From: Nannocystales bacterium
GTDB taxonomy: Bacteria; Myxococcota_A; Polyangia; Nannocystales; Nannocystaceae
Length of the DNA stretch: 42,026 nucleotides
Direction of reading: 5' to 3'
Assembly (NCBI GenBank): GCA_050633305.1
Contig: JBOEGF010000050.1
Coordinates: forward strand, 1-42,026
Position 1 is the first letter of the stretch; each line of letters opens with the position of its first letter. Made by a program: the position numbers. Shown here in pieces: positions 12,001 through 42,000 of the stretch.

Positions 12001-15000
12001 CACGTGCATCAGGATCCTCAGCGGCTCGGCCAACTCCGGAGCGCTCACCGGGTGCTCGGAAGTTCGGCGTGCCTCATCCGCCCGGGTCACCCCGGCCCTC
12101 GCGGACACCCGACCCTCCACCTGGAGGCGAGGACCGAAGCCCTCGGCGCACGAACAACCAACACGAACGGACGAGCAAACGCTCGCCTTCCGCAGACTCC
12201 GGACTTTCCCCCGATGCGCGAGTGGCCCGGTTTGCGCATCAGCAGCGCCGTGCAGTGGCCAGCTGTCATGCTCAGGCGCGCTACGTTCCCCGGACCCACC
12301 CAGGACAGCGACGCCCTCGCCCTGGTGCGCGAGCACTGGCCTGCATTCCGTGAGCGCCTCGAGGAGCGAGCCGGCTCGCTGCCTCGGTTTGTGCGGGACG
12401 AGCTCGAAGGGTTCATCACTTGCGGAGACTTCGAGCACGGCTTCTTGTTGGCGCAGTGCCGCCGCTGCGGCGACAGCCTGCGTGTCCCGTTTGCCTGCAA
12501 AAGCCGCGACATCTGCCCCTCGTGCATGGGCCGGCGCATGGCCGAGACCGCCGCGCTCCTGGTCGAGCATCGTCTGCCGGCGGTGCCGTGGCGGCAATGG
12601 GTGCTGAGCTTCGAGGGCCCGATGGCGGTCCGGCTGGGCTACAACCGGCGGCTGCTCGGGCGGTGTGTCAGTGGTTTGCCAAGCGGGTGATGCAGACGCT
12701 TCGGCAGCAGAGCAAACGGGAGCATCGCTTGCGCAGCAGCAGCAAGCTGCACCCCGGAGTGCTCATCGTGGTTCAACGTTTTCGCAGCGACCTGGGCTTG
12801 TTCGTGCATCTGCATGCGCTGGTCACCGACGGCTGCTTCGAGGCGCCGGCGGTGGCGGACGAGGCGGCGGTGTTCAGGCCGGCCGATGGCCTGTGCGAGC
12901 AGGACCTGTTGCGGACGCTGCAGCGCTTGCACGGCGACCTCGGTGAGCACCTCGACGACGCCGGCGATGGCGAACCTCTCGACGAAGCGCTCGTGGCCTG
13001 CGTCCAGCTCGGCTTGCCCCTGCGTGCTCTCGGACCGCCGCCCTGCGAGCCCCGGCCCGCCTCGCCGATGCTCGTCCGCGGCTTCGGCATGCAGCTGCAT
13101 GCCGCCGTCACCGTCGACGGCCGAGACCGCAAGCGCCTCGAGCGAGTGTGCCGTTATCTCCTCCGGCCGCCGTTTGCCTTCGACGCCGTGCAGCGGACCG
13201 CCGACGGACAGGTTCGGGTCCACTTCAAGAAGCCCAACCGCTTCGGGGCCACCTACGCCCAGATGACCCCGCACACCTTCCTCGCCCGGCTGTGTGCGCT
13301 CGTCCCCCCGCCCAGGGCCCACACGGTTCTGTACTACGGGGTCTTGTCGGCCCACCACACACTGCGTTCGGCGGTGGTGCCTCGCGCTGAGGAACCTGCG
13401 CTCCAGCCCAAGCAGCTCGCGCTGTTTGTCCCTCGCGGACACGTCGAGTTCCCGGGCACCACAACCTTGCTCGAGCCCCAGCTGCGTGATGCTGCTCCGT
13501 CTCGCCTGTCCTGGATGACGCTTCTCGCCCGCGTCTTTCGCTTCGACATCTCCGCGTGCGCTCGCTGTCGCGGGCCCATACGGGTCACTCGCTTCGTCAC
13601 CACCCCCGAGGACATCGCCGCCGAACTTCACGGTGCTCCGCCACCCCCGTGTCCGCCTGCGCCCGGACAACTCCTGCTCTTCTCGGCTCTGCCCTCAACG
13701 CGCTTGGCTCTGCTCCTGGATGCGCGCCCCTTCGCCCCGCGCTCGTACCGGCGTGCCTGCAGTTTGGCCCCGCTCGCTCCCCGCTCCCCTTCGGGCCCGC
13801 TTTCCCCCCCGACGCCTCCGCTCTCCCAGGCTCACCCCCAATCCACACCCGGCCCCAGCCCCGCTCCGCAGCGACCGCCCTCGCCGCCGGCCAAACCTAC
13901 TCCTCCAATCCTGCTTCTTCCCTGTTCATTTCGCTTAAACGCGCGCACCAGCGTCTTTGCCCTGTCGATCTGCCTCCTCCTGTGCGGATGCCGTGACGAA
14001 CCCAGCGACGAGACCGCCGAGGACGAAGCCGGCCTCGATCTCAGCATCCTCGACGCGCCGCCCGACCCACGTTGGCTCGACGCGCCCGCGGACGTTGTGG
14101 CCGGCGGCGTCGAGTTCATCGACCCGGATGGTGCGCTCGAAGGTCTCGAACTGAGCATCACCTCTCGGCCCGTCGAGGGCCTCGTCGGGGGCGTCGCGGG
14201 CTGGTCGATCGAGCCCTCTGGCGAGCTCGACGACATCATCTACGCCCGCTTTCCCCTACCCGACGCTCGGAACCCCGGCGAACCCCTCGTCTTGTGGACG
14301 CAGGCCGACGACGGCTGGTGGACGCAGTCCGTCGGCATCGTTTCCGATGATGGCCAGTCGGCCGTCGCCGCGAGGATCCACTTCTCCGACCAAGCGCTCG
14401 TCAGCCGAGACGCCGCCCGCGAGGCGTTCGTCTCCGGCACCTATTGCAACGGTGAGCAAGCCACCGGCGACGTCTTCAAGGACAATGAGAAGAACCGGAG
14501 TGACCTCAGCGAGTCCGCAATCAACATGCCCATCGCACCTCCAGACGACCGGCCGACGCATGCGTCGATGACCGAGGATCTCACCAACATCTCGCTGACC
14601 CCTGCGGCCGAGTGGGTCGTCTTCAAGAACGAGGAGCGTGCCGGGCCCAGCGAGGCGTGCTGCTGGGAGGGCAACGCATGCTCCTACTCCGGAGAGGCCG
14701 GCTATGAGGACGAAGACTACTTCGGTGATCCTGCGATCGCCGAGCCGCTTCGCCGCCTGGGTGAGCGCGTCCGACCCCTCAGTTGCGGCTCGCTGAAGTT
14801 GGGGGTCTCGGAGATGTTCGACACCGGAACCGCGAAGCGACCCGGCGGTGAGCACTCCGCCAACTCCCTCCACTACGAGGGCCGCGCCATCGACCTCTTC
14901 CTGCTTACAACCGACCCCACCTCCTGGTCGACCCAGTGCGGAGACGATGACCTACGCCGGGGCCGATACGCGCTTGGCCTCAGCCGCCTCGCGCAACTCA

Positions 15001-39000: not shown

Positions 39001-42000
39001 CCACGCTGGACTCGAGCGCCAGTAGATCAGTGCGGCGGTGGCGATCGAACACTTTGGGTGATTGACGATCGCGAACAGCTCGGCGTGGCCGCAGTCCCAG
39101 TTGTGTTTCTCCGCCACGTTGTGCAGCGCACGAGTGCCCTTCCGGTCGATGTCCCGTCGGAAGGCTCGACTCGCCTCCAAGGCTTCTGCCACACCATCCC
39201 GAGCGCACAGGAGCATCTCCGCCCCCCGCATCGTGAGGAAGTCTTCCACGGCCATACCAAGCTCGTCTTGGGACCAGCGCTTCCACGCAGGATCATGCCA
39301 GCTCTCGAAGTCCCTCAGCATCTCGCCGTCGTCAAGCAGCGCGATCGCATTGCTGAATGCCTCCGATGCGGCAACATCGCGGAGGCTCCGATAGGCCTCG
39401 GTTTGGTGTGGGTCGATCAGAGACGCGGCCCAACGGTCCGCTTGCTCCATCGTCCGCGTTCGGAGCTCGACGAGACGCTCCTGGCTGCCCTCGAACTCTG
39501 CGCGTGCCCCAGCCCTCACCTCCGCGGTAGAGCGGCTCTTCTCTTTTCCCACGCGAACACAGACGCCCCACAACCCGAGCGGTTGCATCTGCTGGTAGAG
39601 ACGCGCGTGAGGCCGATCGGTCTCAGGGCGCAGGCGCCGAACCGCAGTCTCGTGTTTCAGGTGGAGGCGTTCGGGCCCGCTCGCGACGCGCAGAGGACAC
39701 GGGCACGACGACTCAGTCTTCGCAGTCCCCCTCGGGAACGCGCCACGGAGTCTTCGGGTCCGGTAGGCCGAGGACATCGCCGCCGAACTTCACGGTGCTC
39801 GGCCACCCCCGCGTCCGCCTGCGCCCGGACAACTCCTGCGCTTCTCCGCTCTGCCCTGAACGCGCTTGGCTCTGCTCCTGGATGGGCGCCGCTTCGCCCC
39901 GCGCTCGTACCGGCGTGCCTGCAGTTTGGCCCCGCTCGCTCCCCGCTCCCCTTCGGGCCCGCTTTCCCCCCCCGACGCCTCCGCTCTCCCAGGCTCACCC
40001 CCAATCCACACCCGGCCCCAGCCCCGCTCCGCAGCGACCGCCCTCGCCGCCGGCCAACCCTACTCCTCCAATCCTGCTTTTTCCCTGTTCATTTCGCTTA
40101 AACGCCGCTCAACCTCCTGTTTCGCCCGGGCCCTCTTTGCCGTCGTCGAGTCGATTCAAGAACCGTCGCCTCCGCTCTTCGCGATACCTACGATGCTCTT
40201 CCGCAAGAGTTTGGACGCGGGAGGGGTGGGCGTTGAGCCAGGCGAACATGGCGGCTTCGCAAGACGCATCAGGTTTCGGGGCCCCGTGCGTGAAGTCGAT
40301 GAGTTCCTCTCCCGAGAGCCTTGCGGACTGCAACGACGCCGCATCGGCAACAACGTACCCCTGAAGGTGACGGGGGAGTCGGTCGATAAGGACGCCGACG
40401 CAGTGCTCGTCGACGAGCCAAAGAAAGTCCCCGAAGAATTCCGCTTCGGTGATTTCTCCACGGGCGTAGCGGTCGATGAGTTCTTCGAACGAGCCCAATG
40501 CACCGCCCAGCATAGCTGAGCTGCGCGGCGGTATGAGGCGGCGGAACAGGAAGCCCCCTGGAGTCCCCACAATGGCCCGCTGCTTTGGGCTGAGGCGCAT
40601 CCGCAGCCAAGCCCCTCGCCTGCCCAGGGGTGCTACCGGTCGCGATGGCATTGACGAGGGTGTAGACGCAGTGCTCGAGGACATGTTCGTCGCCGAGCAC
40701 GGCCCGGTTGCTAGGCTCGTCCTCCGCCTCCGAGGAGCATCCGACCGCTGCCGCTTTTCCACGTACCCAGGTGTGGGATCGATGGGCTCGGCTTGGGGAC
40801 GGCCGCCCAGCCGTTGTGTGCCCATCGCTTCTGCCGAGTGCGTAGGGGGGTACTTGGATTCGCGTTGCGCAACGCTAGTGACACGCAGGATCGCGGGGTG
40901 CACCATCATCGGGCCAGCTACTCAGCCAATGTGAGCTCCAGCGGTTGTAGCTGCGGTCTCCTCTTGTACCGACATCGACGCGGAATCGACGCCCAGTAGT
41001 TCCGGGGCATCCTGTGGGTACATGCCCGACATCAACACCTTCGCCACAGGTGCCACCATTCCCACCGGACCTGTCGGCAGGGCCGGCGACATCGTCGTGG
41101 ACGCGTCTGCACTCAATGCGATCAGCATGTCAAAAGTCTACACACAGGGCCGCGCGGTCGGCCCTGGGGAATGCGTCGTTGTCACCGGACTGACCTCCTG
41201 CGTCGGGCTGCTACTGCTGTGCAGTGGCCAGTACTTGGTGGCCTGCCACTTCAACGGCGGACATAATAAGAGCACCGAGTGGGCAAAAATCAGGGCCCAG
41301 GTTGATGGACGACAGGTTCTCACCGCCGTCATGATCGTCAACGACGATGGTCTCGCGATGGACTGGGATCACCTTCAGCGCGGAGTCAACTGGCTGGGGG
41401 CCCGCACCAGTCTTCGCTACACCCCCAGCGATCAGAATGTTCCGATCGCGTTGTTTCGTGACGGCAACTTCGGGGAGATGACCCGCCAACAAGTGGCCGC
41501 GCGCCGAAGACGACAAAGGTGCGTCATTCTCTAGACAAGCCCGCCCGGGGGCCAGTGGCGAGTGTTCGGCATCATCTCCTACCCAGATCCAGACCCGGGG
41601 TTGTTTCTGCTACCCAGATCCAGACCCGGGGTTGTTTCTGCGGAGGTACCGCCAGTGGCCCAGTGGCCCACCCACTGGTCCAACCGCTACCCCCAGATCC
41701 AGACCCGGGGTTGTTTCTGCGGAGGTACCGCCAGTGGCCCAGTGGCCCACCCACTGGTCCAACCGCTGGCCGCCTTCGCCCAACGCTCCGGTCAGCACGC
41801 CTGAAATCACGCGGTTTCTTCCCTCCGGCGAAACTGGTCAACTCCTTGCTCTCTCCGACACCCGGTGCGTCGCGCGAACCCGTCTTGCCTTGACCGAGCA
41901 TGCAGCAGTTCCTGCACGCCCTTGGCAGGATGCACGTGGAGGCCATCTCTATGACTCGCCCTCGCTTCGTCAAGGCCGGAGAGGTCGTTATGGGGACCCG

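Follow-up and report, generated by a model that had tools for sequence, protein, structure and literature searches.

The window, by which we mean the whole 42,026-nt stretch of DNA analysed here, consists of pseudogene fragments in an inactive mosaic that was acquired horizontally, and we consider it moderately probable that it is a fossil capture array anchored at the oriIS of an ISCR-like member of the IS91 family. The observed basis is family membership, a fixed end, variable left ends, left boundaries that recur with different flanks, a duplicated unit in a congener, and pieces stacked directly against ori ends. The structure of the window array was read from the assembled contig, and taken by itself the window is a modest result; it is the younger arrays of its relatives that are informative on the capture process.

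A motif scan found the 18-nt end motif seven times, always on the + strand (six exact, one with one mismatch), with zero expected from 100 shuffles, and with right edges at 13942, 24047, 27996, 30276, 32730, 38287 and 40105. This bears out the seven same-direction pieces with one common end described in a first-pass annotation, although its coordinates lay 4 nt too far right, and 27984 was off owing to a 16-nt internal duplication near the end of piece B. Six ends belong to 5'-truncated pieces of about 145-770 nt and one to a 1.73-kb copy (12212-13942), all on the + strand: in equivalents of window position, piece A (23711-24047) begins at 13607, B (27596-27996) at 13557, C (30130-30276) at ~13797, D (31965-32730) at 13170 and E (38144-38287, with the mismatched motif) at ~13801, whilst F (39768-40105) shares the left boundary of A in unrelated flanks. 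Host and element meet at sharp junctions that overlap by 0-3 nt, and no constant sequence lies right of the end, all seven running into different DNA. Genome-wide, BLASTN with positions 12101-14100 returned 46 HSPs on 19 contigs, self included (44 on 18 in the earlier count), and the end is retained with at most two mismatches in 15 of 40 pattern matches, where 14 copies had been given. Other remnants are a 3'-truncated, terIS-side fragment (5148-5382, +), of which 5245-5382 is 95% identical to 12212-12350; an internal fragment of a distant IS91-family transposase (24070-24390, +; 40% amino-acid identity to residues 114-251), 23 nt past the end of piece A; and an inverted internal fragment that belongs to another subfamily of the element (38524-38648, -). 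An IS3-type element also sits within the array; copies with 95-98% identity to it terminate further contigs in the bin, among them the 114-kb C21.

The longest copy had been taken for a full one (12212-13946). It is not: about 97 nt of the left end are missing (these nucleotides survive at window 5148-5244 and also in relatives and the C40 copy), the frame shifts near 12655 and the stop codon is lost, whilst the C40 copy has an in-frame stop in the transposase. No intact transposase was found in this assembly, and the element is dead in this genome. The longest copy nonetheless encodes Zn_Tnp_IS91 (PF14319, 12268-12654, E 8.6e-18) and Y2_Tnp (PF04986, 12663-13685, E 1e-20), both also present on an intact G002 copy, in keeping with the original IS91-family assignment. 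Its best NCBIfam model is ISCR clade Ia, at 212 bits (E 1e-62) against a cut-off of 925 that is not reached, and the IS91 equivalog scores 82.2 bits, under its cut-off of 125. The nearest named transposases, those of ISCR1 and ISCR2 (= ISVsa3), are 31-35% identical in amino acids, with more than 90% of the length aligned, and against ISVsa3 and ISCR1 identity is 31% across 92-98% of the length. In the three-way alignment with the latter two, H177, H179 and Y294 (LERxCRYxxRP) are invariant, and Y294 is the only tyrosine conserved in the motif; we take these residues to be the HUH motif and the catalytic tyrosine. ISCR transposases are single-tyrosine enzymes, and that of IS91 has a two-tyrosine motif. 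The element belongs to the IS91 family in the broad sense, and its transposase is closest to those of ISCR.

The fixed end lies 235-248 nt 3' of the stop codon, and the oriIS of ISCR1 232 nt after its own (PMC6218425). Anchored at the end, 10 of 20 positions are identical to the ISCR1 oriIS (shuffle p 0.024), and 11 of 17 core positions, counted by eye, are alike in ISCR2. The fixed end is on the side where the IS91 family has its oriIS. Terminal inverted repeats are lacking (with the left 80 nt set against the reverse-complemented right 80 nt, the longest exact match is 5 nt, a length equalled or exceeded in 499 of 500 shuffles), as is target-site duplication in all four insertions inspected (pieces A and F, and both copies of the G002:C20 unit described below). 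A conserved tetranucleotide after the end, such as the CTTG, GTTC or GTCC of IS91, IS801 and IS1294, was not found at the seven window and 29 G002 ends. Single-strand DNA folding of the last 97-101 nt gave no significant subterminal palindrome or hairpin on either strand (z +0.55 to +1.19 versus shuffles), and the 476-aa protein has the two IS91-type domains only, with no helicase domain.

Between the pieces lie gene fragments matching six other contigs of the genome (C15, C18, C13, C19, C36 and C10), as expected from the earlier claim that they relate to distant loci. A block at 17733-23710 is colinear with the gyrB locus (C15:176791-182794) and comprises an ECF sigma factor, a Ser/Thr kinase-TPR protein, a Cys-rich protein and gyrB' (21989-23710, -), which has 574 codons without a stop and is interrupted at codon 254, where it is cut at piece A. 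A sigma-factor fragment (region 4; 27157-27595, -), homologous to C18:974858-975296, is cut at piece B; a short fragment at 29383-29517, the Hsp70 N-terminal piece of the first-pass naming, has 81% nucleotide identity to C15:43993-44127; and a kinase-like plus CheR-like fragment (30278-31964), homologous to C13:134576-135830, exactly fills the gap from the end of piece C to the start of piece D. A FabA-like/PUFA-synthase-like fragment (32732-33441, +) starts at the end of piece D and matches C19:6523-6912 (84% nucleotide, 92% amino-acid identity) and also G006:C33, and a homologue of C36:106896-107213 (37830-38149, -) is cut at piece E. In the units 27997-30276 and 32731-38287, fragments are joined to one another without an element between them.

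Whose genes were these? The earlier identity for GyrB, 94.6% over 574 aa, was exactly reproduced, and that of the sigma fragment came to 83.0% over 153 aa (82.6% before), yet the idea that the fragments are copies of this genome's loci does not hold. They are homologues only, at 75-84% nucleotide identity, and all seven tested show dS of 0.44-0.93 with dN/dS of 0.05-0.27 against the resident genes (gyrB' 0.69 and 0.048; dN/dS 0.09-0.27 in the other six), values on which the resident genes were rejected as sources. Indeed, gyrB' is equally distant from the resident gyrB and from those of G001 and G002. These values trace the fragments to functional genes in another species of this genus, and the array would therefore have been assembled in a congener or out of congener DNA. 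Such distances could also be expected if the contig were an artefact, either a chimeric assembly or a misbinned contig of a co-occurring congener whose own genes the fragments would be: the genome resembles a metagenome bin (92% complete, 90 contigs), those of the relatives are MAGs, and assembly and binning were judged from contigs. However, the junctions lack long identical words (0-3 nt), repeat collapse cannot give truncated pieces with different left ends, and the same architecture is found on G002 contigs of 218-760 kb. Furthermore, the left-flank gene (3311-5047) is single-copy in the bin, with orthologues in five of five congeners, and the IS3-type element is 95-98% identical to copies on other bin contigs. 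Misbinning would in any case alter the donor story and not the structure, and we hold an artefact to be very improbable.

The relatives offer a younger view. G002 contains intact element copies and arrays in which 29 ends lie within 140 kb, every one leading into different sequence; 12 consecutive ends fall on one strand within 65 kb, in pieces 96-99.8% identical to an intact local copy. Across the relatives, 71 distinct truncated, ori-retaining pieces have 63 distinct boundaries, seven of which are each common to 2-3 contexts, and many element copies in congeners start at the equivalent of window position ~5148. Left boundaries show a weak sequence preference: 14 of 71 start with CG (0.14 expected, p 0.12), and 25 of 71 with CG or CCG (p 4e-4), a category set post hoc after inspection of the data. 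In L027, three ends fall inside 220 nt, and mini-pieces of 91 and 111 nt abut one another without any filler. The 1326-bp G002:C20 unit, made up of a piece and 478 bp of non-element DNA, is present in two copies (98.6% identity) that differ in both flanks; units of non-element DNA and a truncated piece therefore move.

Could the same picture arise from a hot spot, entered many times in one orientation, with deletion and homologous recombination between copies at different loci then joining the flanks? Bardaji et al. concluded that reorganisation, not one-ended transposition, had produced the majority of the IS801 fragments seen in Pseudomonas syringae genome sequences (PMC3189936), and the mosaic variants among our pieces, in which three nearby sites of one alignment give all four combinations, fit gene conversion between copies. 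Yet independent deletions would not share one nucleotide endpoint in unrelated contexts, as do A and F and the seven common boundaries, and one orientation is kept in all seven window ends and the 12 consecutive G002 ends. Rearrangement, moreover, does not duplicate DNA, whilst G002 holds both an intact source and a truncated copy at 100% identity. This route seems to us quite unlikely.

For an oriIS-anchored array, we posit that the transposase would act as an HUH single-strand nuclease whose N-terminus binds zinc and whose catalytic motif has a single conserved tyrosine, starting at oriIS, downstream of its gene, and working back through the element, a direction that we infer from work on IS91 and IS801. 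An early stop would yield right-end mini-pieces, whilst a run past the left end, or a start from a piece without one, would carry upstream DNA along. Units of foreign DNA, truncated piece and oriIS would be added one behind another, head to tail, at oriIS junctions already present, presumably by transposase-mediated insertion or by recombination of circular intermediates, and such stacking would account for the single orientation throughout the array. Rolling-circle capture from the fixed end, as first proposed, is supported in part, by the oriIS-anchored 5' truncations and the mobile congener unit; the mechanism is less simple than read-through. In G002, four captures match native loci at 100%, 100%, 96% and 91% identity, and no element was found within ~2.5 kb of these four source loci (C17, C12, C13 and C20), two of which hold intact genes colinear with G000; this counts against simple read-through, because the classical form needs an element adjoining the captured DNA. 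Stable insertion inside gyrB is expected to be lethal, which also counts against the proposed capture. We further set against it the missing tetranucleotide, the lack of a significant hairpin, the weak left-boundary preference, a structure read from assembled and binned contigs, and the state of ISCR transposition, which has not been demonstrated experimentally for any ISCR (PMC6218425).

These element-free sources speak for a rival reading, break repair at a resident oriIS nicked by the transposase, in which short-homology template switching or end joining would copy distant or incoming filler between the fixed end and the DNA to its right; capture would then be a by-product of site-specific nicking, with no movement of units. 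Where captures are 100% identical, their sources are intact and lack the element, three of the four recent G002 captures begin at the ori end, where the element's last bases overlap the source by 1, 5 and 3 nt, and fragments are joined without an intervening element in both window units and at G002:C18:140090. One 926-bp filler matches its source at 100%, and the piece on its right reaches no more than 97.5% identity to the intact copy next to it, such that the piece looks older than the filler. In another case, however, the piece looks younger (99.4% versus 96% for its filler), the two-copy unit with different flanks demands mobility, left boundaries recur in unrelated contexts, and the 91- and 111-nt mini-pieces are stacked without filler. 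On balance, we see break repair as unlikely. A bolder and less probable idea is that the oriIS end serves as a site-specific point of docking or breakage, where the array gains copies of DNA that had never lain next to the element, perhaps including single-stranded DNA from kin or congeners entering the cell, so that the arrays would be a running log of captures. If true, this would account for the element-free sources, the sampling of essential gyrB and the foreign origin of all window fragments, and would give a concrete, testable answer on how ISCRs acquire genes at the oriIS side.

Why does this matter? ISCR elements are credited with building resistance regions, and how DNA comes to abut oriIS has been argued from few clinical structures. 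This myxobacterial lineage presents the same architecture at a much larger scale. Copies run to dozens per genome, transposases are intact in one congener or more, and the distinct oriIS-anchored pieces number at least 71. Capture junctions can be placed to the nucleotide, since some of their sources remain 100% identical elsewhere in that genome. Competing models, i.e. read-through from a resident copy, circle insertion or recombination at oriIS, and nick-induced templated repair, become testable here. Capture as such is not new, and its novelty had been overstated: truncation at a fixed end and the capture of flanking DNA had been described before in IS801, IS91 and ISCR.

The closest parallel is ISCR (ISCR1 and ISCR2), with which the element shares the zinc-binding Cys pattern, the HUH motif and the single conserved tyrosine; its putative oriIS lies at a similar distance, ~230-250 nt past the stop codon, and unrelated DNA beginning exactly at oriIS is the hallmark of ISCR1 (PMC6218425). 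However, ISCRs reside on gammaproteobacterial resistance plasmids and carry whole resistance genes, whereas our element occurs in Myxococcota MAGs, in long same-direction arrays, with ordinary chromosomal gene fragments as captures and a score far under the clade Ia cut-off. IS801 experiments trapped both kinds of product seen here, right-end fragments (229, 360 and 679 nt) and full copies with 290-1431 nt of upstream DNA (PMC3189936); according to the same text, its products end at a GAAC-like tetranucleotide with insertion beside GTTC, unlike ours, and the available portion describes no serial arrays. IS91 has the same domain architecture, with distinct oriIS and terIS and no inverted repeats, and is reported to fail at termination in 1-50% of events and to form circular single-strand intermediates (PMC13181058), but it differs in its CTTG/GTTC target, subterminal palindromes at oriIS and upstream orf121, and in an NCBIfam cut-off that our element misses. 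Helitrons, which are eukaryotic, likewise have one fixed and one variable end and build gene-fragment patchworks, and truncation and read-through are described as creating new ends with a few nt of overlap, and insertion as occurring beside older truncated copies (PMC4778049); with a bacterial host and no helicase domain here, the kinship goes no further than the HUH fold.

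The window is the entire 42,026-bp contig C50 of an 11.0-Mb genome (90 contigs, ~65% G+C), and the 18-nt end motif reported in the first-pass annotation is borne out within it: there are seven occurrences, all on the + strand, six of them exact and one with a single mismatch, where chance predicts none (0 in 100 shuffles). When the seven copies are aligned, identity runs from differing left starts through ...AAACGC and then gives way to unrelated DNA. Alongside the long copy (12212-13942) there are six 5'-truncated + strand pieces, A (23711-24047), B (27596-27996), C (30130-30276), D (31965-32730), E (38144-38287) and F (39768-40105), which begin at long-copy coordinates 13607, 13557, ~13797, 13170, ~13801 and 13606, respectively. 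They share 92-98% identity among themselves and with the long copy, and the alignment of copies bears signs of gene conversion; outside the window, no copy in the genome is more than 90% identical to them, the closest being that on contig C40 (83.5%). Genome-wide, BLASTN returns 46 HSPs of the element on 19 contigs, and the end is present with ≤2 mismatches in 15 of 40 loose pattern matches. Two details of the ends deserve mention. Directly after the end of piece E (38288-38295), and again at G002:C18:109151 in the congener G002, stands a partial second copy of the motif's last 7 bases (…TTAGACGC ATAAACGC…; …TTAAACGC TAAACGC…), which may be the footprint of two events at one junction. Past the end of the long copy (13947-15527, +), the frame runs on into an apparent lipoprotein signal (…ALSICLLLCGC…) with no start codon and no Pfam match; this would be a gene that lost a few codons where it meets oriIS.

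On its + strand the long copy encodes the IS91-transposase zinc-binding domain (PF14319, E 8.6e-18) and, after it, Y2_Tnp (PF04986, E 1e-20). In NCBIfam it scores highest against 'ISCR element clade Ia' (212 bits, E 1e-62) and lower, at 82 bits, against the IS91 equivalog, both scores lying under the curated cut-offs. Among 72,556 plasmids, the closest transposases are those of ISVsa3 (ISCR2) and ISCR1, which align along 92-98% of the length with ~31% identity, and a three-way alignment with these shows full conservation of the Cys ligands, of HxH in the HUH motif and of one tyrosine within LERxCRYxxRP. The fixed end lies 235-248 nt past the stop codon, compared with the 232 nt reported for the ISCR1 oriIS region (PMC6218425), and in an end-anchored comparison 10 of 20 positions agree with that oriIS (shuffle p 0.024). 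The element departs from the IS91/IS801/IS1294 group proper in three of that group's features. We found no terminal inverted repeats in the element, no target duplication at any of the four insertions inspected, no conserved tetranucleotide 3' of the window or G002 ends, and no significant hairpin at the element end. The profile, plasmid, alignment, end-distance and oriIS-match results, together with these absences, lead us to place the element in the IS91 family as a distant, ISCR-like member.

The supposed full copy at 12212-13946 turned out to be neither intact nor full length: its frame shifts near 12655 and its normal stop is gone. A left-end fragment of the element at 5148-5382 opens with 97 nt absent from the copy at 12212, and these are retained by the copy on C40 and by numerous congener copies; in the congeners the element measures ~1.84 kb. 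The C40 copy has a stop in frame, and tblastn with an intact congener transposase (20 HSPs) found no full-length open transposase in the genome; the window array is an inactive fossil. In three element-bearing congener sequences (L021, L029, L040), the left terminus bears an 8-nt unit (CTGCCGAG) in tandem, the number of units differing between copies, so that the exact boundary of terIS, the left end, is uncertain.

The DNA between the pieces, its gene content read in part by tblastn with 43 ORFs picked on codon-position GC, is a mosaic. A block at 17733-23710 is colinear with the gyrB locus on this genome's C15, comprising an ECF sigma factor, a Ser/Thr kinase-TPR protein, a Cys-rich protein and gyrB, the last of these being truncated at codon 254, precisely where piece A starts. 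A sigma-factor fragment adjoins piece B, a kinase-plus-CheR fragment occupies exactly the interval from the end of piece C to the start of piece D, a FabA-like fragment begins at the end of piece D, and a C36-like fragment adjoins piece E. The four host-element junctions that we aligned are sharp (0-3 nt overlap), and none holds a long shared word able to mislead an assembler. No tRNA gene or Rfam family was found in the window.

The proposal that these fragments came from this genome's own genes did not hold up. The gyrB fragment (gyrB', 21989-23710, minus strand) spans 574 codons with no stop or frameshift, and differs from the resident gyrB at a dS of 0.69 with a dN/dS of 0.048, a pattern like that of orthologues between species of the genus (dN/dS 0.06-0.07). 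Its identity to the resident gene (83.4% over 2.6 kb) is about the same as to those of the congeners G001 (83.1%) and G002 (81.8%), and these three genes are 83.6-86% identical among themselves. Six further fragments, in frames chosen by best amino-acid identity, stand at dS 0.44-0.93 and dN/dS 0.09-0.27 from their resident homologues. Set against the mere 2-8% that separates the element pieces, these values indicate that the fragments originate in functional genes belonging to a different, unsampled species of the genus. The array was either put together in that other species and then transferred, or assembled here from incoming DNA. No gyrB' donor was found among 40 relatives (best non-self matches 83% to this genome's own C15, 83% to G001 and 82% to G002), nor was an empty site, the right flank 40106-41600 being unmatched at E ≤ 1e-20 among the matches listed for five congeners. 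A misbinned contig C50 would likewise give congener-level distances, and an artefact of binning or assembly is a reading that we consider unlikely. Two findings speak against misbinning: the left-flank gene (3311-5047) is single copy in the bin with orthologues in 5/5 congeners, and an IS3-type element within the array (36850-37941; HTH_Tnp_1, E 7e-16) is 95-98% identical to the ends of contigs C21 (114 kb), C51 and C81. The IS3-type element is probably a repeat with recent activity at which the assembly breaks.

Congeners hold many members of the ISCR-like family, and its public records are labelled Myxococcota MAGs (Nannocystaceae, Sandaracinaceae). In G002, which has long contigs, two of three translated full-length copies are open, and 29 ends fall in 140 kb; on its contig C18, twelve of these ends lie on one strand within 65 kb, the pieces being 96-99.8% identical to the intact copy of that array. 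This genome, G002 and one further congener together yield 71 distinct 5'-truncated, end-retaining pieces with 63 distinct left boundaries, seven of which each recur in 2-3 unrelated contexts. A 'CG rule' for these boundaries, which had fitted a few junctions, was dropped (CG start in 14/71 against 0.14 expected, p 0.12), and a CG/CCG version (p 4e-4) is not relied on, its criterion having been set after seeing the data. One unit has evidently moved: on G002:C20, 1326 bp made up of an 848-nt piece and 478 bp of non-element DNA are present in two copies of 98.6% identity, which lack a target duplication and differ in their flanks on either side. The congener sequence L027 packs three ends into 220 nt; the pieces there, 91 and 111 nt long, are stacked directly on ends and presumably too short for efficient homologous recombination.

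Young captures in G002 also bear on mechanism. G002:C18:126557-127482, which has the intact copy's end on one side and a 276-nt piece on the other, is a 100% copy of G002:C17:275777-276702; G002:C18:139547-140090 is a 100% copy of part of G002:C12; and two more captures are 96% and 91% identical to G002:C13 and G002:C20, respectively. Three of the four begin at an end, with 1, 5 and 3 nt common to the element's last bases and the source; an exact cleavage point was sought from these three source-defined junctions, and no one cut position fits all. None of the four source loci has an element within ~2.5 kb, and the C17 and C12 sources have their genes complete and are colinear with the orthologous regions of this genome.

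In experiments reported for IS91 and IS801, transposition proceeds from oriIS through the element to terIS, with early stopping leaving right-end fragments and late stopping carrying upstream DNA (PMC13181058, PMC3189936), and an overlap of a few bases at the new junction is described as usual (PMC4778049). We lean, with modest confidence, towards oriIS-started transposition with early or late termination as the likeliest origin of the array, with which the fixed end, variable left ends, recurrent boundaries and duplicated unit are all compatible. Insertion at a hot spot followed by deletion and recombination, by comparison, fails to explain either the duplicated sources or the shared boundaries, and we regard it as improbable. 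Same-orientation, head-to-tail stacking could arise if units entered where a resident oriIS is cleaved, or if circular intermediates recombined with a resident copy, as has reportedly been proposed for ISCR1. Nevertheless, oriIS-started transposition does not explain the element-free source loci of the G002 captures, since with captures of 100% identity a resident donor copy should remain visible. Moreover, an insertion in gyrB would hardly have been tolerated. Element-free, intact sources and this intolerance favour one of three possibilities: very short-lived donors, such as sister chromosomes or the DNA of dead cells; incoming DNA that was captured; or repair of a nicked oriIS in which 'filler' is copied from elsewhere, an account that we hold to be plausible but rather unlikely. 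The relative ages of piece and filler do not settle the matter, as the piece appears older in one G002 case (97.5% vs 100%) and younger in another (99.4% vs 96%).

Published work already describes IS91-family and ISCR elements that capture genes, mini-fragments of the right end, and circles that carry neighbouring genes (PMC3189936, PMC5737581, PMC6218425, PMC13181058), and the novelty first claimed is overstated. In the literature searched we found no long same-direction arrays of housekeeping-gene fragments from a bacterial IS91/ISCR element, and no such arrays in Myxococcota. The wider lineage offers a good natural system for how ISCR elements acquire DNA at oriIS.

Several neighbouring features were also recorded. 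The ORF at 3311-5047 (+; 579 aa) carries a thiol-activated (cholesterol-dependent) cytolysin domain (PF01289, E 3e-49), is single copy in the genome (next best match 41% aa) and is 82-88% identical at the nucleotide level in 5/5 congeners; a left end of the element lies ~100 nt 3' of it, and at G002:C29:218726-219230 a copy of the 3' end of the cytolysin gene is attached to a full element. Upstream, ORF 2204-3241 contains dense short in-frame repeats at 2303-2821 (+; 9-21 nt spacing, 30 overlapping 177-nt registers) and looks like a low-complexity repeat protein, with no match in Pfam. The stretch 9099-9701, whose overlapping ORFs have no Pfam match, is 82-90% conserved at several congener sites (G001:C578, G004:C1 twice, G002:C32) and could represent a further small unit, mobile or repeated. 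Finally, two exact 76-nt direct repeats with 79 nt spacing (41613-41767 / 41619-42026) belong to a family also present on C14 (87%), C24, C26, C40 and C18, and contig C50 terminates within this repeat.
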